A DNA stretch of 64,000 nucleotides from Escherichia coli (GTDB lineage Bacteria > Pseudomonadota > Gammaproteobacteria > Enterobacterales > Enterobacteriaceae), in assembly GCF_003334405.1 (NCBI RefSeq), contig NZ_QOWM01000003.1. One strand, 5' to 3'. The stretch's first letter is position 1; every line of letters starts with the position of its first letter. Below the pieces are notes generated by a model. That model was not told the DNA's origin. It was given only the letters and a program-made list of their open reading frames with translations, and ran no database searches. The translations under genes and the position numbers were made by a program. Below are positions 11,332 through 19,923 of the stretch, in pieces.

Positions 11332-12147
11332 TTAGCGAAGTGTTTTTGGGGTCATTACCCGACGAGCGCCAACATAGTGGCGCTGCCAGTAGTCTTCACT
11401 GAGAGAAGTGATTTGAATTTCCTGACCTGTGCGCGGTGACTGAATAAATTTGCCGTTGCCGACATACACGCCGACATGATCGGCTGTGCCGCGTCCCTGA
11501 GTACGGAAAAAGACCAGGTCGCCGTTTTTCAGTTCACTACGTTCGATTGGCGCTGCATCACGCAGGTGATACATTTCATTCGCCGTACGCGGAATACGAA
11601 TTTTCACCAAATCTTTATAAGCGTAATAAACCAGGCCGCTGCAATCAAAACCGGTACGCGGTGAGCTGCCACCCCAACGATATGGCTTACCAATTTGCTG
11701 CATCAGTTTATTCATTGCCACTTTCGTAGCTTTTTGCACCTTCGCTTTGTGCGCGTCGGCAAGAGTTCCTGACGCGGCATTTTTGACTTTCACACAATGC
11801 GATTTATAGCCCTTACGTTTGGTACACTTTTCGGTAAAGCTGGCTGAGGCCGTTTTATTGACGGCGTGTTTGCTGCGAGTTTTGGCGTTTTTAGAAGCGG
11901 TAATGGAAGATTTTTTAACGGAAGAAGCGGTTTTGCTTTTGGTCGTACTTTTACTGGCGGCTTTTTTCGCTGGTTTCTGGGTCTTTTTGGTGGTTGCCGT
12001 GCTTTTCTTTTTATCTGCTTTTTTGGTGATATGAGTGGTAGCAGAACTCTCCCTGGCTTGCTTTGAAGCATGGGCCATAGGCGTTAAAGGCAGGGTGGTA
12101 AAAAGTAAAGCACAGAGCGTGATCGAAATACGGTTTATCCGCGCCAC
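11332..12147 (-). CDS. mepH: NlpC/P60 peptidoglycan DD-endopeptidase (MepH/YdhO), 271 aa, with a Lys/Thr/Ser-rich low-complexity region
   Basis: Signal peptide, then the K/T/S-rich segment (KKADKKKSTATTKKTQKPAKKAASKSTTKSK...), then a C-terminal NlpC/P60 domain with catalytic Cys (FDCSGLVYYAY). Confidence 0.92.
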   Translation of the reverse strand: MARINRISITLCALLFTTLPLTPMAHASKQARESSATTHITKKADKKKSTATTKKTQKPAKKAASKSTTKSKTASSVKKSSITASKNAKTRSKHAVNKTASASFTEKCTKRKGYKSHCVKVKNAASGTLADAHKAKVQKATKVAMNKLMQQIGKPYRWGGSSPRTGFDCSGLVYYAYKDLVKIRIPRTANEMYHLRDAAPIERSELKNGDLVFFRTQGRGTADHVGVYVGNGKFIQSPRTGQEIQITSLSEDYWQRHYVGARRVMTPKTLR

Positions 12148-12480
12148 TGAGCGTCCCTCTGTTAAGGCAGGTCTATCATGCCTGCGTCTGATTTACAAAA
12201 CTTGATGATTCTAATGCATAGAAGAAGAGAAAGTTAATAGCTTTTATTGTTAAAAAATACGTTTCGTTGGCGAGCGCAAAAAAATGCAGCAGTGAAAGCT
12301 AAAAATGGTTATAAATACGCCAGTTTGCCGGCATCAGAGAAGAAACGAATATTTGAAATGCAACAAATAGAGCAAAGGGATAAAATAGCAAAAGCGTGAT
12401 GAAAATGTTATTTTCCGATGCCGCACTGACCCGCTACAATGTCAGATTACTGCCGTAAAGAAGTTTGAGGAAGCAAGACA

Positions 12481-12828
12481 ATGAGCACCACTATCGAAAA
12501 AATCCAACGCCAGATTGCTGAAAACCCGATCCTGCTGTACATGAAAGGTTCACCGAAACTGCCGAGCTGCGGTTTCTCTGCCCAGGCAGTCCAGGCGCTT
12601 GCCGCATGTGGCGAACGTTTTGCCTATGTTGATATTCTGCAGAATCCGGACATTCGTGCGGAACTGCCGAAATATGCTAACTGGCCGACCTTCCCGCAAC
12701 TGTGGGTTGACGGCGAGCTGGTCGGCGGTTGTGATATCGTGATCGAAATGTATCAGCGTGGCGAACTGCAGCAGCTGATCAAAGAAACTGCCGCTAAATA
12801 CAAGTCTGAAGAGCCGGACGCGGAATAA
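12481..12828 (+). CDS. grxD: Monothiol glutaredoxin Grx4, 115 aa
   Basis: CGFS active-site motif (KLPSCGFSAQAV) in a full-length ORF. Confidence 0.97.
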   Translation: MSTTIEKIQRQIAENPILLYMKGSPKLPSCGFSAQAVQALAACGERFAYVDILQNPDIRAELPKYANWPTFPQLWVDGELVGGCDIVIEMYQRGELQQLIKETAAKYKSEEPDAE

Positions 12829-12878
12829 TCCGTCCTGCAATACTGACGGATGCGAACGGGCATCCGTCAGTCCTTTCT

Positions 12879-15800
12879 CTATCCCCAATCCAGCCCTTGT
12901 GGCGAACTTGAAAATCCCGCCTCACGCAGCAGCGTAAACATCGGCGTTTGCCGGACCGGTAGATCATTCACTTCTGTTAGCGTAAAGCGCAGCCGTGGTT
13001 CGCGACGCAGTGCGGTAGTCAGCGCGTGGAAAACCTCTGGGGCGAGTAATTCCTCTTTTTCCTGCCAGACCAGCATTTTTTTGCCACCTTGCGCCAGATA
13101 GAGTAACAATTTGCCGCCAGAAACGACCACCAGCGCACCCGCCCGACGCGTTGGAACCAGCGTTGCCGGATGTGCAGGCCAGGGCAGAAGATTTCCCCAC
13201 ACATTAGCCGGATCGTTGGCAGAGAGCGCCACTGGTGTATAGTGGCGCGTTTGCGTGGCTTGTGTCGCCAGATCGCGCAATCGGTCAATAGTCAGACGTT
13301 CAGCGAATTGCGCGCCACCCAGACCTTCTACAAAACGACCTCGCATAATTCGCCCGGAGTCTTCCATACTTCGACAAAGCGTTTGCATCGATGGAAACCC
13401 GCCAGGGATATTTTCGGCTATCACCGCCTGACGACTGATGATGCCGTAGCGGTCGAGCATATTTTCCGCCAGCGCCAGCATCCTTTCGGTATCGTTTAGT
13501 GGCTCCACCTGCAATAACGACCAGCGTCCAGCCAGATTTGGTGTGTTGTAAGATACCCGCGGCGAGACGGGTTGCGCATAGACAGGACGTCCACGACGAG
13601 CCCGGTGACTGCGGCGAGTTGAGGTGCGTGCGTTGGAACTGCTGCGGGTGAGGGCGCGTAACGGTGCCCAAATGTCGCTGGTGATGACGCCTTGCCAGAC
13701 CAGCGCCCATAACGCCTCTTGCAGGGCAGAGAGATCAACCGATTCGCCGATTTTGTCGCGTATCCGTTGGCTGATTTGTTGTGCAAACCAGGCTCCTCCG
13801 TCAGCCAGAACAGCGACTATCGCTTGTTGCAGCGCCGAACGATTCGCCTGATCCGCTTCGGCGGGAGTGAACGATTCTGCAGCATATTCCTGTAGATGCA
13901 GTGCCACCAGGCCGTCATCTTCACCCAGTTTTTTTTGCCCCGACCAGATAACCGCACCGGTTGCCAGTAATTCATCGAGCATTTCTGACGAATAGTCGCG
14001 TACGCGGGCAGGCAGGATCTGGCTTTCCCAGAGTGAGGCGGGTAAACCGACTCCGGCAAGCTGTTCGATCACCCGCATCACGCCATCTACGCCCTCATAA
14101 ACGCCTGGCGATGTTGAGGCAAAGAGCGCCGGGCTACCATCGGTGGCGGGTAATACGCCCTGACGTTCCAGCAGCAATCGCGCATAGGTCGTGGCTGCAA
14201 CGGGACGCGTCGCTTCTCTGGCGGCTTGCAGCGAGCGCAAACGCAGACGACGAAATACTTCATCGCTCACCCAGATGTCTTGTTGCAGATTCATCACCAG
14301 ACCCTGTTCACGCAGTTGCTGAAGCTGCTCTTCGACAATGGCAATACCGAGACTAAACTCATGAGCCAGTTGTTCAGCCGTGACCAGAGCATGAGCCCGG
14401 AGATAGCGCAGAAAGAGGTCGCGAAGCGGGTAACTGACTCTATGTAAATAAATCTCTGGCAATGACTCTGGTAGTCGTACGCCGAGGGCATCACGCAGCC
14501 TGGCGGCATCATCCATACAGGCAAGACGCTCCTGTCCGCTAATCATCGCTGGGAAGATTCGTTTTACTGCAAGAAGATTTTCCAGATACGACGCAACCTC
14601 TTCACTGCTGCCTGTATGCCGTTGCGCCAGGTCTTCAACGGTCATTGGCCCCAGTTCGCGCAGCAGGTCGAACAATCCTTCTTCACCTTTCGCTCTTCTG
14701 CCAGGAGCCAGTCGTTGCAACTCTTCTTCCACCTGGCGAATGACCTGCGGGTCGAGTAATTCCCCCGGATCGACCTGTCCGAGTAGATTGCGCAGTAACT
14801 CGCTGTCCAGCGACAGTACGGATGCCCGGCGCTCTGCCAGCGGGGCGTCGCTCTGGTACATAAATTCCGCGACATAGCCGAACAATAAACTTGTGGCGAA
14901 AGGCGAGGGCGTAGTGGTCGTTACATCGGATATTTGAATTTCGCCACCGTTCAGGCGACGCATCAAACGTTCCAGTGCGGGAAGATCATAAACATCTTGC
15001 AGACATTCGCGTAGGGTTTCGAGAATGACCGGAAAATCCGGATATCCCTGAGCGATTTCCAGCAACTGACTGGCGCGCAGCCGTTGTTGCCAAAGCGGGG
15101 TGCGATGGCCCGGAGTGCGCCCCGGCATTAATAATGCCCGCGCGGCGCATTCGCGAAAACGGGCGGCGAAAAGTGCCGAGCTGCCTACCGCCTCGCGGAC
15201 AATTTGCAGCAACTTTTCTGGTTCAAACAAAAAAATCGCGGCATCGGGCAATTTACCATCGGTGTCAGGAATACGTGCAACAATGCCGTCATCACTGGCG
15301 ACCACCGACGCGTCAGCGCCCCATAGCGCATGTATTCGCCCGGCAATCGCCACCGCCCAGGGTTCATGCACCCGTCTTCCATAGGGAGAGTGCAAAATAA
15401 TACGCCAGTCACCAATTTCATCACGGCACCGTTCGAGGACCAGATGGCGACTCCCCGGAACGATGCCCGTCGCGTTGCGCTGCTCCTCAATCAACCCCTG
15501 AATATTGGCGATCGTATTTTCTTCTGCCAGCCACGGGGGAATAGTCCCGGAAAAGAACGCGCCATCCGCCAGCAAATGAAGAAAATCGCCGATCATCTCG
15601 CCTAATTCAGCCGGACGTCCGTTACCTTCACCACGCCAGAAGGGGAGCCGGGCAGAACGACCCGGAGCAGGAGTCACAATCACCTGATCGCGGGTGATTT
15701 GCTGGATCCGCCATGAGGTAGCGCCGAGAGTGATAATGTCGTTCACCCGCGACTCATATACCATCTCCTCATCCAGTTCACCCACCCGCCGCGAACCGGC

Positions 15801-17495
15801 CTTTTCTTCACCTTCGGGTAATAACACGCTATACATGCCACGATCCGGAATGGTGCCGCCGCTGGTAACCGCCAACAATTGAGCGCCAGGTCGGGCGGTC
15901 AATATCCCGGTCTCCCTGTTCCAGACCAGTTTGGGGCGAAAAGCAGAAAAATCGCCAGAGGGATAGCGCCCGGAAAGCATATCCAGCGTGGCGTCAAAAA
16001 CACGTCTTGGCAGATCTTTCCACGGTGCGGCACGGCGTACGCGGGAGTACCATTCGTCTACCTGTAATGCATCCATCGCCGCGGCGGCAACGGTTTGCTG
16101 CGCAAGGACGTCGAGAGGATTATGCGGTGGTGTCAGGTTTTCCAGCCTGCCTGCGAACATACACTCTACAATGACTGCGGAATCGACTAAATCACGCCGG
16201 GTACGGGGGAAAAACAGCCCTTTAGATACACCGCCAACCTGATGTCCGGCGCGACCAATGCGTTGTAACCCACTGGCAACAGAAAGCGGCGTTGCCACCT
16301 GAATCACCAGATCCACCGCGCCCATATCAATCCCCAGTTCAAGACTGGAGGTTGCGACCACGCAGCGTAATTCACCCGATTTCAGCGCCTGTTCGGTGAT
16401 TGCTCGTTGTTCTTTAGAGACGGAGCCGTGGTGTGAGCGGGCAATAAAAACGTCGCTACTTTGTACACGGTTAGAGGTTGCGCCGGAGGTCGACTCGAAA
16501 TGGGCCGCATCAACGGCGATAGACGGGGAACGCTGTAAGCGTGCGGCGTAAAGCTCATTTAATCGTGCCGTCAGTTTTTCCGCCAGCCCCCGCGAATTAG
16601 TAAAGACAATGGTCGAGCGATGGCGCAACACTTCATCAAGGATACCCGTTTCAATATATGGCCAGATGGAGCCTTCCCGGCCGGCATGGCTGTCTTCGCC
16701 GGTGCCGCTGGCGACCGATGAGACATCATCCATATTGGCGACCGGTACGACAATTCGTATCTGCGGATGGCGCATTGCGGGCGGGTTGACTACCGTAACC
16801 GGGCGATCGCCACCAAGAAATGCTGCCACATCGCTGGCTGAGCGCACAGTGGCAGAAAGGCCAATTCGCTGTGCTGAGGTGTGGAGCAGCGCATCGAGCC
16901 GCTCCAGACTTAACGCCAGATGCGCACCACGTTTACTGCCCGCTACCGCGTGGACTTCATCAATAATTACCGTTTCGACGCCGCGTAGCGTTTCGCGCGC
17001 GCGGGAGGTCAGCATCAGATAGAGTGATTCGGGTGTGGTGATCAGAATATCCGGCGGATTACGGGTGAGTTTGCTGCGTTCCTGTGCAGGCGTATCGCCA
17101 GTACGGATCCCTACGCGAAGATTGACTTCCGTTTCGCCGCGCCGCCGCCGTTCATCGGCAATACCCTTCAACGGGATCTGCAAGTTGCGCTGAACGTCGG
17201 TGCCCAGGGCTTTTATCGGTGAAATATAGAGGATGCGTGAGGTTTTACGCTTATGCGCCTCGCGGGTATCTTCGCCGCCTTCGCGGAAGAGCCGATCGAG
17301 GGCGTAGAGAAATGCTGCCAGCGTTTTCCCGGAGCCGGTCGGTGCAATCACCAGCGCATGTTCGCTTCGCGCCGCCACATGCCAGGTTTGCGGCTGGACA
17401 GCGGTCGGCTGTTTAAAGGCGCGAAGAAACCAGTCGCGGGTCGCCGGTGAAAACACGTCCGGCAGGAGCGATGAAGGGTCTGGATTATCTGCCAT
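12879..17495 (-). CDS. lhr: Large ATP-dependent helicase Lhr, 1538 aa
   Basis: Walker A (APTGSGKT) and DEVH (IIDEVHAV) motifs in the N-terminal superfamily-2 helicase core, with a long C-terminal extension; lies immediately downstream of rnt. Confidence 0.96.
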   Translation of the reverse strand: MADNPDPSSLLPDVFSPATRDWFLRAFKQPTAVQPQTWHVAARSEHALVIAPTGSGKTLAAFLYALDRLFREGGEDTREAHKRKTSRILYISPIKALGTDVQRNLQIPLKGIADERRRRGETEVNLRVGIRTGDTPAQERSKLTRNPPDILITTPESLYLMLTSRARETLRGVETVIIDEVHAVAGSKRGAHLALSLERLDALLHTSAQRIGLSATVRSASDVAAFLGGDRPVTVVNPPAMRHPQIRIVVPVANMDDVSSVASGTGEDSHAGREGSIWPYIETGILDEVLRHRSTIVFTNSRGLAEKLTARLNELYAARLQRSPSIAVDAAHFESTSGATSNRVQSSDVFIARSHHGSVSKEQRAITEQALKSGELRCVVATSSLELGIDMGAVDLVIQVATPLSVASGLQRIGRAGHQVGGVSKGLFFPRTRRDLVDSAVIVECMFAGRLENLTPPHNPLDVLAQQTVAAAAMDALQVDEWYSRVRRAAPWKDLPRRVFDATLDMLSGRYPSGDFSAFRPKLVWNRETGILTARPGAQLLAVTSGGTIPDRGMYSVLLPEGEEKAGSRRVGELDEEMVYESRVNDIITLGATSWRIQQITRDQVIVTPAPGRSARLPFWRGEGNGRPAELGEMIGDFLHLLADGAFFSGTIPPWLAEENTIANIQGLIEEQRNATGIVPGSRHLVLERCRDEIGDWRIILHSPYGRRVHEPWAVAIAGRIHALWGADASVVASDDGIVARIPDTDGKLPDAAIFLFEPEKLLQIVREAVGSSALFAARFRECAARALLMPGRTPGHRTPLWQQRLRASQLLEIAQGYPDFPVILETLRECLQDVYDLPALERLMRRLNGGEIQISDVTTTTPSPFATSLLFGYVAEFMYQSDAPLAERRASVLSLDSELLRNLLGQVDPGELLDPQVIRQVEEELQRLAPGRRAKGEEGLFDLLRELGPMTVEDLAQRHTGSSEEVASYLENLLAVKRIFPAMISGQERLACMDDAARLRDALGVRLPESLPEIYLHRVSYPLRDLFLRYLRAHALVTAEQLAHEFSLGIAIVEEQLQQLREQGLVMNLQQDIWVSDEVFRRLRLRSLQAAREATRPVAATTYARLLLERQGVLPATDGSPALFASTSPGVYEGVDGVMRVIEQLAGVGLPASLWESQILPARVRDYSSEMLDELLATGAVIWSGQKKLGEDDGLVALHLQEYAAESFTPAEADQANRSALQQAIVAVLADGGAWFAQQISQRIRDKIGESVDLSALQEALWALVWQGVITSDIWAPLRALTRSSSNARTSTRRSHRARRGRPVYAQPVSPRVSYNTPNLAGRWSLLQVEPLNDTERMLALAENMLDRYGIISRQAVIAENIPGGFPSMQTLCRSMEDSGRIMRGRFVEGLGGAQFAERLTIDRLRDLATQATQTRHYTPVALSANDPANVWGNLLPWPAHPATLVPTRRAGALVVVSGGKLLLYLAQGGKKMLVWQEKEELLAPEVFHALTTALRREPRLRFTLTEVNDLPVRQTPMFTLLREAGFSSSPQGLDWG

Positions 17496-17587
17496 TAACG
17501 CTATTCCCCGTGAATATCATGCAGGATGCGTGGAATAGCCTCACTATAGATGCCTGAATCATTGCATGTCATCAGGCATCGACTCGA

Positions 17588-18235
17588 TTACACCTCTTCG
17601 GCGGCAGATAGCGGCCAGCCTCCCAGACGTTTCCAGCGGTTGACGATTTCACAAAACAGCACAGCAGTGCGTTCGGTGTCGTACAGCGCGGAGTGCGCCT
17701 GGGTGCTGTCGAAGTCCATGCCAGCGGTCTGGCAAGCCTTTGACAATACGGTTTGTCCGAGTGCCAGCCCGGCCAGTGCAGCAGTGTCAAAAGTGGCGAA
17801 AGGGTGGAACGGGTTACGTTTCAGTGAGGCGCGTTCTGCGGCGGCCATCATAAAGCTGTGATCAAAATTGGCATTGTGCGCCACCATAATGGCGCGGTTA
17901 CAGCCGCTCGCTTTAATACCTTTACGTACAACTTTAAAAATTTCGTGCAGCGCCTCGTATTCGCTGACCGCGCCGCGATCGGGATCGTTCGGGTCAATGC
18001 CGTTGAAGGCGAGGGCTTCTGGTTGCAAATTTGCGCCGACAAATGGTTCGACGTGGAAATGTAATGTGGTGTCCGGCATCAGCCAGCCTTGTTCATCCAT
18101 TTTCAGGGTGATGGCGGCAATCTCAAGCAGCGCATCGGTTTTGGCGTTAAATCCGGCTGTTTCAACATCGATCACAACAGGATAAAAACCACGAAAACGG
18201 TCGCACAGACCGGTAAGTTGAGCGTTATCGGACAT
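17588..18235 (-). CDS. rnt: Ribonuclease T (DEDDh exoribonuclease), 215 aa
   Basis: [30 protein letters not shown]... with DEDD exonuclease motifs. Confidence 0.97.
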
Positions 18236-18337
18236 CTGATTCTCTTAATACGGATAAATTGCAGCGCGCATTATGACAAATATTACTTGTCGATGCAGTA
18301 AAGATGCGGGCGCGATGAGTTCACGCCCGGCAGGAGA

Positions 18338-18745
18338 TTAGTTGCCCAGACCGCGACCGGCGTCTTTCTCTTCGATTAACTCAATTTTGTAACCGTCCGG
18401 ATCTTCCACAAACGCGATAACCGTAGTACCGCCTTTTACCGGACCCGCTTCACGGGTCACGTTACCCCCGTTTTGACGGATTTTTTCGCACGCTTCAGCG
18501 GCGTTATCTACGCTAAGCGCGATGTGACCATAAGCAGTGCCGAGTTCGTATTTATCCACGCCCCAGTTGTAGGTCAGTTCAATCACCGCTTCTTCGGTTT
18601 CCGGGCCGTAGCCAACAAACGCCAGTGAGTATTTGTATTCCGGGTTTTCGCTGGTACGCAGCAGTTTCATGCCCAGCACTTTGGTATAAAAATCGATGGA
18701 GCGTTGCAAATCGCCAACGCGCAGCATGGTATGAAGAAGACGCAT
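18338..18745 (-). CDS. gloA: Glyoxalase I (lactoylglutathione lyase), 135 aa
   Basis: [30 protein letters not shown]... Confidence 0.97.
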
Positions 18746-18825
18746 CTTTTTATCCTCAAAATGGCTAACAGATTCAAAATGTTGTTTTAGTATAGCGGCG
18801 GCTTTACGCCGCTCGCAATGTTGGA

Positions 18826-19923
18826 TTACAACGTCGGGTAATCGGTATAGCCTTCCGCGCCGCCACCGTAGAAACTTTCGGCACGCTGTGGGTTAAGCTC
18901 AGCTTTGCGCTGCAAGCGGGCGACCAGATCCGGGTTCGCAATCCAGTCACGACCAAATGCCACCGCATCAATTAACCCTTTGCCGATCAGCGTTTCAGCT
19001 TTTTCTACTGTGTATGCACCTGCGCCGATAATCGGACCGTGGAAACGGGCGCGTACTTTTTCGCGGAACGCATCAGTATACGGTTCACCCCCCGCCCAAT
19101 CTGGTTCTGACATATGCAGATAAGCAATGCCGCGTTTACCCAGTTGTTCAATCAGATACAGTGCATCGGCTTCTTCATTCGGGCCGTTATCTGTGTTCTG
19201 GAAAGTACCGATTGGTGAAACGCGAATGCCAATGCGATCGGCACCCCATTCTTCAATCCCGGCATCGACCACTTCCAGTACCAAACGTGCGCGATTTTCC
19301 ACGCTGCCGCCGTACTGATCGGTACGATGGTTTGAAGAAGGAGAAAGGAACTGATGCAGCAAATAACCGTGAGCAGAGTGGAGCTCTACCAGATCAAAAC
19401 CGGCTTCACGCGCGTTAGCAATGGCCTGACGGAAATCATTGACGATACCTGGAATCTCTTCCAGTTCAAGCGCACGCGGCATGGATGTTTCAACACGGAT
19501 CGCCTGACCATTTTCATCGCGCAGAGAAGTACGTGTTCCCGCGCTAAGTGCTGAAGGCGCTACCGGTGCCTGACCGCCAGGTTGCAGGCTGGCGTGAGAA
19601 ATGCGTCCGGTGTGCCACAGCTGCATGGCCATATGACCATTTTCAGCATGAACGCCAGCGGTGATTTTTTTCCATGCGGCAATTTGCTCCGGACTATGGA
19701 TGCCAGGCGCACCTGCATATCCTTTTGCCTGGGCAGAAATTTGCGTGGCTTCACTAATAATCAAACCGGCACTGGCACGTTGGCGATAGTATTCCGCCAT
19801 CAACGGGGTAGGAATGTCACCCGGTTCAATACTGCGCAGACGCGTCAGCGGTGCCATAAAAATACGGTTTGCCGCCGTGATCGCGCCCACTTTCAGTGGG
19901 GAATACAGTTTTTCAGATGACAT
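18826..19923 (-). CDS. nemA: N-ethylmaleimide reductase (Old Yellow Enzyme family), 365 aa
   Basis: OYE-family flavoprotein ORF, downstream of nemR and upstream of gloA on the same strand. Confidence 0.95.

Follow-up and report, generated by a model that had tools for sequence, protein, structure and literature searches.

Lhr of Escherichia coli (EcoLhr) has been described as a homo-oligomeric, ssDNA-dependent ATPase, 3'-to-5' translocase and helicase (PMC8053096). Deletion of lhr in E. coli leads to sensitivity to H2O2 and AZT but not to mitomycin C (PMC10953399), whereas in mycobacteria the loss of lhr confers sensitivity to both mitomycin C and cisplatin (PMC9841417); lhr is also synergistic with radA (PMC4357459). 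The C-terminal domain (CTD) of M. smegmatis Lhr has a solved structure, 7LHL, which comprises five winged helices and a beta-barrel and is tetrameric and AlkZ-like (PMC8053096). For the E. coli protein, a uracil-DNA glycosylase (UDG) activity dependent on D1536 has been published, and the D1536A substitution eliminated it from full-length Lhr as well as from the CTD alone, with DNA binding and unwinding unaffected (PMC10953399). The operon partner of mycobacterial lhr is nei2, located downstream, as against rnt, located upstream, in E. coli (PMC9841417). Earlier publications already cover rnt and lhr and how they are arranged, as well as helicase activity, the CTD fold and a candidate enzyme activity of the CTD.

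The window is a stretch of 64,000 nt of E. coli DNA, within which the two genes are located as follows.

12879..17495 (including the stop codon), minus strand: lhr, encoding a 1538-aa ATP-dependent helicase (ORF list, ATG start; NF007284; b1653)
17588..18235, minus strand: rnt, encoding RNase T, a DEDDh 3'-5' exonuclease of 215 aa (ORF list, ATG start; TIGR01298; b1652)

The gene identities proposed in the initial annotation were borne out by equivalog scores above cutoff. The NCBIfam Lhr equivalog NF007284 matched Lhr over residues 1-1538 of 1538 with 3412.8 bits (cutoff 1496), and TIGR01298 (RNase T) matched the rnt product over residues 10-208 with 382.9 bits (cutoff 246.2). Given this length and these profile scores, a chance origin of the 1538-codon open frame is excluded by far. 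The placement of rnt upstream of lhr on the same strand with a 92-bp gap was likewise recovered from the ORF list, at 17496..17587. Along its entire length, the interval 12500-18500 matched MG1655 and other derivatives of K-12 with 100.0% identity, in keeping with the earlier expectation of no departure from reference strains. In MG1655 (NC_000913.3), rnt (b1652) and lhr (b1653) have the same order, products and coordinates, with 6001 bases identical and no differences. By sequence, the locus is the rnt-lhr transcription unit of reference E. coli K-12.

Our main reading, to which we assign a probability of about 0.9, is that this K-12 unit pairs the gene for RNase T with that for a two-part DNA-repair helicase, and that lhr is an insertion of the Escherichia lineage that is expressed by read-through from rnt. 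The first of the two parts is the helicase core.

14868..17495, minus strand: Lhr-Core, aa 1-876, containing RecA1, RecA2, winged-helix and DEAD_assoc domains (Pfam, PDB 5v9x)
17322..17345, minus strand: helicase motif I (Walker A), APTGSGKT, aa 51-58 (translation)
16950..16961, minus strand: helicase motif II, DEVH, aa 179-182 (translation)

The superfamily-2 core anticipated from its APTGSGKT and DEVH motifs was located at residues 51-58 and 179-182, and motifs III (SAT, 214-216) and VI (QRIGRAGH, 411-418) were also found. Pfam assigned DEAD to residues 31-218, Helicase_C to 349-417, WH_Lhr to 446-616 and DEAD_assoc to 679-867. In a PDB sequence search, the MsmLhr core structure 5v9x matched residues 15-876 (E 3.5e-293). 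The protein thus has the features expected of the Lhr family, namely motifs I, II, III and VI, a four-domain core and a full-length equivalog score. According to the literature, the core (approximately aa 1-877) is an SF2 motor that moves 3'-to-5' on ssDNA and unwinds DNA and RNA:DNA duplexes.

The second part is the CTD.

12882..14867, minus strand: Lhr-CTD, aa 877-1538, consisting of tandem winged helices and a beta-barrel, with an AlkZ/YcaQ-like subdomain
14052..14063, minus strand: Q1145-L-A-G1148, tentative counterpart of the AlkZ/YcaQ Q-phi-(Q/D) motif with Ala in third place (column counts)

The C-terminal extension had been put at about 700 aa; the published boundaries, 877/898-1538, give approximately 640-660 aa. 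PDB 7lhl matched Lhr over residues 15-1479 (E 0, PDB sequence search), the Pfam families WH2_Lhr, WH3_Lhr and WH4_Lhr matched the CTD, and an AF2 model of the domain reached a pLDDT of 86.2. The homologous architecture of the MsmLhr CTD, with tandem winged-helix modules and a beta-barrel, was recovered, as was the C-shaped fold of the AlkZ/YcaQ type, with three winged helices and a beta-barrel. The model and fold searches, which follow the domain and structure prediction suggested in the initial annotation, reproduce the published fold, and its description of the CTD as an open target for structure-based annotation is outdated in view of 7LHL, the Pfam families and the published D1536-dependent UDG activity. 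Two findings had been named in advance as counting against that annotation: a C-terminal region already annotated with an activity is largely what the literature offers, while expression of lhr solely from its own promoter was not found.

The CTD shares only 12-16% identity with the AlkZ and YcaQ (AlkX) HTH_42 interstrand-crosslink DNA glycosylases (PDB 5UUJ, 9ZD6), and unlike these enzymes the Lhr-CTD is joined to a helicase and oligomeric. Pfam PF06224 (AlkZ-like) had no significant match over the glycosylase domain, with a marginal partial match on another stretch, residues 927-1108 (E 1.1e-3, 19.2 bits). Alignment of the CTD alignment with E. coli YcaQ using hhalign was weak, at 3% probability and E 0.015, and placed YcaQ 57-87 on Lhr 1158-1186. 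Taking this weak anchor with a one-residue shift, YcaQ Q45-I-D47 putatively corresponds to Lhr Q1145-L1146-A1147. Q1145, L1146 and G1148 were invariant in 45 Lhr homologues, and the third motif position (1147) was Ala in 36 of the 45. The (Q/H)-phi-(Q/D) catalytic motif has been stated to be absent from Lhr-CTD (PMC10953399, PMC9040887, PMC8053096). A second candidate for the AlkZ motif, QLQ at 1057-1059, was rejected: it is not conserved, the family consensus being TLR, and it falls in a helix of a winged-helix fold in the N-terminal subdomain.

The reported glycosylase activity depends on a residue in the C-terminal GLDWG sequence.

12888..12890, minus strand: codon of D1536, reported essential for UDG activity (within GLDWG at 1534-1538)

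The family-wide conservation expected of a catalytic Asp was not found at this position, either in 45 CTD homologues (36 with Arg, 4 with Asp, 3 with Thr and 2 with other residues) or in 74 species loci. In the latter set, Asp was confined to the two loci from Escherichia, Pantoea had Ser, and at least 54 loci, those of mycobacteria among them, had Arg. Likewise, no similarity of Lhr to UDG families was detected in Pfam, NCBIfam, PDB sequence or fold searches. The CTD had a dN/dS of 0.146 versus 0.055 for the core, so on substitution rates it evolves faster than the core; its ratio is nevertheless far below 1, and purifying selection still acts on it.

These results bear on an alternative in which the ancestral and main role of the CTD is structural or lesion-recognizing, tetramerizing the protein and positioning four motors, and UDG activity is either a recent Escherichia-specific gain or non-physiological. 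The restriction of Asp to Escherichia-type sequences, the Ala in third place of the candidate Q-phi-(Q/D) counterpart, the missing UDG-family matches and the higher CTD dN/dS all favour this alternative. The M. smegmatis protein points the same way, since its tetramerization is a demonstrated in vivo requirement (PMC9841417), evidence for a glycosylase in its CTD was not found and its AlkZ-like cleft is occluded (PMC9841417, PMC8053096). On the other side, D1536A kills the activity with binding and unwinding intact and the lhr deletion is H2O2-sensitive (PMC10953399), an active site may be particular to one lineage, and the CTD is still constrained by selection. We regard this alternative as a serious contender that falls a little short of an even chance. 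Because the residue underlying the UDG claim is not conserved, the role of the CTD in most bacteria becomes a sharper question. For the two-part helicase of our main reading, the literature shows for the E. coli protein that the CTD (approximately aa 877-1538) oligomerizes Lhr and carries an AlkZ/YcaQ-like fold, with D1536-dependent uracil excision as reported.

The transcription of the pair was assessed from the spacer and from the convergent end of lhr.

17496..17587, minus strand: rnt-lhr spacer, 92 bp, with no intrinsic terminator (sequence, terminator scan)
17549..17580, minus strand: hairpin 8 nt past the rnt stop, with arms GATGCCTGA / TCAGGCATC, a 14-nt loop and no U-tract (RNA fold)
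17543..17572, minus strand: promoter-like ATGACA-18 nt-TATAGT, a candidate internal lhr promoter that overlaps the hairpin (10/12 consensus match)
12842..12871, no strand assigned: hairpin with a 12-bp stem between the convergent lhr and grxD stops (terminator scan, plus strand, that of grxD)

The terminator scan detected no intrinsic terminator in the rnt-lhr spacer. Co-transcription of rnt and lhr is stated in PMC8301817, which cites work from 1995, so the co-transcription idea of the initial annotation stands on this secondary citation together with the missing terminator. A full-text literature search for rnt-lhr as an operon returned nothing relevant. The spacer hairpin had a folding energy of -14.6 kcal/mol (z -2.1), and 9 of 200 shuffles were as stable. 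Rfam gave no match anywhere in 12000-19000 (E <= 1), and on that scan the spacer hairpin belongs to no known RNA family. The interval 17480-17610 had 96% mean column identity across K-12, an Escherichia with a 93% Lhr, E. albertii and Nissle; covariation in the hairpin was uninformative because its arms are invariant in these four Escherichia sequences. At the other end of lhr, the hairpin between the two convergent stops has 12 pairs, 7 of them GC, and is not followed by a U-tract on the lhr strand.

Given the 10/12 promoter-like site in the spacer, lhr may in addition be transcribed from a start site of its own. In the stronger form of this idea, lhr would be expressed mainly from its own spacer promoter (start near 17535), the hairpin would be a terminator or processing site, and the two genes would be separately regulated. 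The site at 17572..17543, the stable hairpin directly past the rnt stop and the retention of both in all four Escherichia sequences are in its favour. However, conservation extends over the entire spacer and gives the motif no special standing, and the region held 6 promoter-like sites against 4.4 +/- 2.4 in shuffles (consensus scan), so that the ATGACA-TATAGT motif is not significant alone. The hairpin, having no U-tract, was not scored as a terminator, and co-transcription is what the literature reports (PMC8301817). Predominant expression from an internal promoter is therefore considered unlikely, and read-through from rnt is retained as the main reading.

The origin of this arrangement was examined by comparison with related genera. 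In Salmonella, Cronobacter and Mixta, gloA-rnt faces grxD at a distance of 68-80 bp with no lhr between them; the absence of lhr from Enterobacteriaceae other than Escherichia was shown directly for these three loci. The rnt-grxD gap in Salmonella and Cronobacter contains canonical A-tract/stem/T-tract terminators (two spacers inspected). Among the 80 Lhr loci listed, rnt adjoins lhr only in the two from Escherichia. Two intermediate CTD homologues, P0009 and P0026, are fragments at contig ends, and their upstream context is uninformative.

Among the matches listed, the Lhr proteins closest to that of E. coli outside Escherichia were encoded on Pantoea megaplasmids, followed by those of Actinomycetota. 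Pantoea Lhr (P. agglomerans, P. piersonii and others) is full-length and has 57-58% identity over residues 15-1537. It differs from the E. coli protein in having Ser at the D1536-equivalent position in the locus examined, and its gene lies on plasmids of approximately 0.47-0.61 Mb beside LysR or IclR regulators with no rnt neighbour; in the Pantoea locus examined, lhr adjoins an IclR-type regulator and an ABC transporter.

The GC content of lhr is 56.9% versus 51.0% for the window, and its GC3 is 55.9%, no higher than that of neighbouring genes; the excess comes from the amino-acid content of the protein (R 9.6%, K 1.7%). High GC as a mark of recent transfer was rejected on the grounds that GC3 is not elevated over the neighbours, and for the same reason any transfer of lhr would be old, with its direction inferred.

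By this comparison, lhr would have entered the gap that separates rnt from the convergent grxD within the Escherichia lineage, probably displacing a bidirectional intrinsic terminator like the one found after rnt in Salmonella and Cronobacter. With the terminator replaced, transcription from the rnt promoter would continue into lhr. The rnt-lhr pairing would then be a by-product of the landing site and not an ancient functional operon.

The opposite view is that rnt and lhr are functional partners in an operon that coordinates repair through 3'-end processing, with RNase T trimming structured DNA at its 3' ends, and Lhr loading on 3' tails to unwind or scan. The shared strand, the 92-bp distance without a terminator and the reported co-transcription speak for such a partnership, as do the spacer kept within Escherichia and the activity of RNase T in DNA repair pathways (PMC8301817). 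The same source gives protein-level interaction as unreported, and the comparative evidence is contrary. The wider conservation of the pair that would point to functional coupling was not found among the 80 Lhr loci listed or in Salmonella, Cronobacter and Mixta: adjacency is limited to Escherichia, these three genera retain rnt without lhr, Pantoea Lhr is on plasmids and unlinked to rnt, and the mycobacterial operon has nei2 and no RNase T (PMC9841417). Within E. coli itself, 1040 of 5426 genomes have lost lhr with rnt intact. A functional partnership is accordingly judged very improbable, and because the insertion is lineage-specific, the rnt-lhr linkage is not usable as evidence for a common function. 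The insertion with read-through remains our main reading.

The losses within E. coli share a single form.

13007..17394, no strand assigned: 4388-bp segment missing in part of E. coli, with imperfect flanking repeats GGTTCGCGAC / GGTTTGCGGC

Each of those 1040 genomes, out of 5426 complete ones, carries one identical lhr deletion of 4388 bp, and Nissle 1917 and ST131 are among them. A literature search on lhr loss in phylogroup B2 returned nothing relevant.

A broader account of the gene would hold that Escherichia lhr is an anciently acquired and partly decaying accessory gene of actinobacterial type, which landed on the rnt terminator and is expressed by read-through, was lost once in the ST131/Nissle 1917 lineage and is interrupted by a nonsense mutation in the type strain of E. 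albertii, and in which D1536 is Escherichia-specific. We consider this account evenly balanced between right and wrong. The side results on lhr are of modest value to Lhr researchers. Natural lhr deletion mutants make up approximately one-fifth of sequenced E. coli, with major pathogenic clones and the probiotic Nissle among them, and offer a ready resource for phenotype tests. If the account of a partly decaying accessory gene is true, uracil excision would be neither an ancestral nor a general function of the Lhr-CTD.

The rnt-lhr pair of the initial annotation was recovered as it had been read, as two open reading frames in the six-frame ORF list, on the same strand and separated by 92 bp.

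12879..17495, minus strand: lhr, 1538-aa ORF
17588..18235, minus strand: rnt, 215-aa ORF

In NCBIfam searches the Lhr equivalog NF007284 covered the 1538-aa protein over its whole length (3412.8 bits, cutoff 1496), and TIGR01298 identified the 215-aa protein as RNase T (382.9 bits, cutoff 246.2). The expectation that nothing here differs from reference strains also held: all 6001 bases of window 12500-18500 were identical (100.0 %) to K-12 MG1655 and derivatives, and the NC_000913.3 annotation has the same layout of gloA, rnt (b1652), lhr (b1653) and then convergent grxD. The locus is real, correctly read and thoroughly known.

The two superfamily-2 helicase motifs claimed for Lhr, APTGSGKT and DEVH, were both located in the translated sequence, within the following architecture.

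Motifs (translated sequence) and Pfam domains of Lhr, encoded on the minus strand
aa 51-58: helicase motif APTGSGKT
aa 179-182: helicase motif DEVH
aa 214-216: helicase motif SAT
aa 411-418: helicase motif QRIGRAGH
residues 31-218: DEAD
residues 349-417: Helicase_C
residues 446-616: WH_Lhr
residues 679-867: DEAD_assoc
C-terminal part: WH2_Lhr, WH3_Lhr and WH4_Lhr, dedicated families

The top match in a PDB sequence search was full-length Mycobacterium smegmatis Lhr (7LHL, E 0, residues 15-1479); the core of the same protein (5V9X) matched at E 3.5e-293, and Ski2/Hel308/Brr2-type helicases ranked far below. The C-terminal domain (CTD, residues 877-1538) was used as a query to assemble an alignment of 45 homologues, and its predicted structure (mean pLDDT 86.2, pTM 0.76) was used as a query against solved structures. 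Others had already published the structure-based annotation proposed for this domain, and our structural annotation reproduces theirs. The region was found to be largely annotated already, because it has both an annotated fold and an annotated activity.

Escherichia coli Lhr is an ATPase, 3'-to-5' translocase and helicase that is oligomeric via its CTD (PMC8053096). In M. smegmatis, where lhr is co-operonic with nei2, resistance to mitomycin C and cisplatin requires the Lhr CTD, motor activity and tetramerisation (PMC9841417). E. coli Lhr removes uracil from DNA, as does the CTD on its own, and the D1536A substitution abolishes this excision, leaving DNA binding and unwinding unaffected; deletion of lhr in E. 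coli confers sensitivity to H2O2 and a mild sensitivity to AZT, but none to mitomycin C (PMC10953399). An earlier report described synergy of lhr and radA for AZT survival (PMC4357459).

Conservation was assessed at the reported active-site residue and at a second, tentative motif.

12888-12890, minus strand: D1536 codon, Asp present in the window's Lhr
14052-14063, minus strand: Q1145-L-A-G1148, with Q-L-x-G invariant in the 45 CTD homologues

The residue aligned to D1536 was Asp in only 4/45 CTD homologues, all sharing at least 66 % identity with E. coli, and Arg in 36/45. Across 74 species loci, Asp was confined to the two Escherichia loci; Pantoea has Ser, and at least 54 loci have Arg, among them the mycobacterial ones, where the protein ends in TPRGLRLR. 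A weak profile alignment of the CTD with E. coli YcaQ placed YcaQ 57-87 on Lhr 1158-1186. From this anchor, with a one-residue shift, the catalytic Q45-I-D47 would tentatively fall over Q1145-L1146-A1147, position 1147 being Ala in 36/45 homologues. The Q-L-x-G motif, just upstream of the sole stretch aligning to YcaQ, may correspond in degenerate form to the Q-phi-(Q/D) catalytic motif. This tentative placement agrees with three papers in which the AlkZ/YcaQ motif is stated to be missing from Lhr (PMC8053096, PMC10953399, PMC9040887). No similarity of Lhr to UDG families was found in NCBIfam, Pfam, PDB sequence or fold searches. Because D1536 is not conserved, the AlkZ/YcaQ motif is reported to be missing and UDG-family similarity was not detected, uracil excision may be an activity confined to the Escherichia lineage, or the CTD may have a different main function. 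The D1536A result (PMC10953399) stands as evidence for a role of that residue in E. coli Lhr.

Co-transcription of lhr with the RNase T gene, as suggested in the initial annotation, is already stated in PMC8301817, and lhr was not found to depend solely on a promoter of its own. The 92 bp spacer contains two overlapping elements.

17549-17580, minus strand: spacer hairpin with 9-bp arms and a 14-nt loop, beginning 8 nt past the rnt stop codon
17572..17543, minus strand: promoter-like motif ATGACA-18-TATAGT

The hairpin (-14.6 kcal/mol, z -2.1) is not followed by a U-tract and was not called by the terminator scan, and no Rfam family matched the spacer. Mean column identity over window 17480-17610, which covers the spacer, was 96 % among four Escherichia sequences, one of them from a strain with lhr deleted; the arms of the hairpin did not vary among the four and hence provide no test of structure. 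Judged from these sequence features, read-through from rnt into lhr is the simplest reading. An extra lhr start site within the spacer, besides read-through, is possible given the promoter-like motif, but such motifs are no commoner in this region than in shuffled sequence. The interval between gloA and rnt also holds a terminator-like hairpin, at 18307-18329 on the minus strand (CGGGCG...CGCCCG then CATCTTTACT). It sits immediately upstream of where the rnt promoter is presumed to be, which suggests that simple read-through from gloA does not account for rnt transcription.

To place the pairing in context, one genome per species was scanned for Lhr relatives. The best 80 matches comprised two Escherichia loci (93 and 89 % identity), one Pantoea (59 %) and 77 Actinomycetota (45–52 %), and among these 80 only the two Escherichia loci have an RNase T gene adjoining lhr. 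The Pantoea gene instead neighbours genes for a sugar ABC transporter and a regulator of the IclR type. Lhr matches occurred in 55 Pantoea records of the plasmid collection; all 27 Pantoea among the 30 records listed were megaplasmids of 0.47–0.61 Mb with full-length Lhr, 57–58 % identical to E. coli, and the gene there adjoins LysR or IclR regulators. The next nearest relatives among the matches listed were Actinomycetota (45–52 %). Three further matches filed as Escherichia plasmids (H113-H115, 4.8–4.9 Mb) are evidently E. coli chromosomes, which accounts for the lhr hits under that label. An Enterobacterales endosymbiont carries a CTD-bearing Lhr fragment, 49 % identical (L003 98-8074), on a contig that looks plasmid-like because it also bears ParA-like, ParB and Rep3 genes.

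In Salmonella enterica, Cronobacter universalis and Mixta gaviniae, by contrast, gloA and rnt face grxD across 68–80 bp without lhr.

Gaps between rnt and grxD lacking lhr
L086 7658-7725: Salmonella
L087 7673-7746: Cronobacter
L088 7682-7760: Mixta

The Salmonella and Cronobacter gaps hold a canonical bidirectional intrinsic terminator (A-tract, GC stem, T-tract), whereas E. coli has none such after rnt; a different hairpin lies between lhr and grxD (terminator scan and sequence). From this comparison, lhr would have been inserted between rnt and grxD in the Escherichia lineage, displacing the rnt terminator, and such an insertion would explain co-transcription without any functional link between Lhr and RNase T. 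The GC content of lhr was 56.9 % vs 51.0 % for the window, its GC3 (55.9 %) was like that of neighbouring genes, and the Arg-rich (9.6 %), Lys-poor (1.7 %) composition of Lhr holds the excess GC. If lhr was transferred, the transfer is old, because GC3 matches the neighbours and the GC excess resides in amino-acid composition.

Selection was estimated between K-12 and the Escherichia locus with 93 %-identity Lhr.

dN/dS by gene or region
lhr, whole gene: 0.089
lhr core (aa 1-876): 0.055
lhr CTD: 0.146
rnt: 0.02
gloA and grxD: about 0

These ratios indicate that purifying selection on intact lhr persists but is weaker than on its neighbours. The dS of lhr (0.455 against the same locus, 0.89 against E. 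albertii) was about twice that of rnt, gloA and grxD (0.19–0.37).

Although all 5426 complete E. coli genomes matched the region, most of lhr was present in only 4383. In Nissle 1917, rnt and grxD are intact, and of lhr only the first 101 and the last 128 bases remain (L001 4001-4229). The missing 4388 bp (window 13007-17394), nearly all of lhr, are flanked by the imperfect repeats GGTTCGCGAC and GGTTTGCGGC. A junction-spanning query was contiguous at the exact deletion junction in 1040/5426 complete genomes, including O25b:H4-ST131 and Nissle 1917, both of which belong to phylogroup B2; this shared junction points to one ancestral lhr deletion. No paper on the deletion was found in the literature searched. 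Elsewhere, an IS1A insertion splits lhr in two genomes otherwise identical to K-12 here (H1, H2), and in the E. albertii type strain NBRC 107761 a single nonsense change at W595 (TGG to TGA; L005 2541-7151) splits it into ORFs of 594 and 932 aa; either a genuine pseudogene or an error in the sequencing could explain this.

The proposed insertion origin of lhr, its plasmid-borne relatives, its repeated loss and the lack of conservation of the reported catalytic residue offer modest leads and fall short of discoveries.
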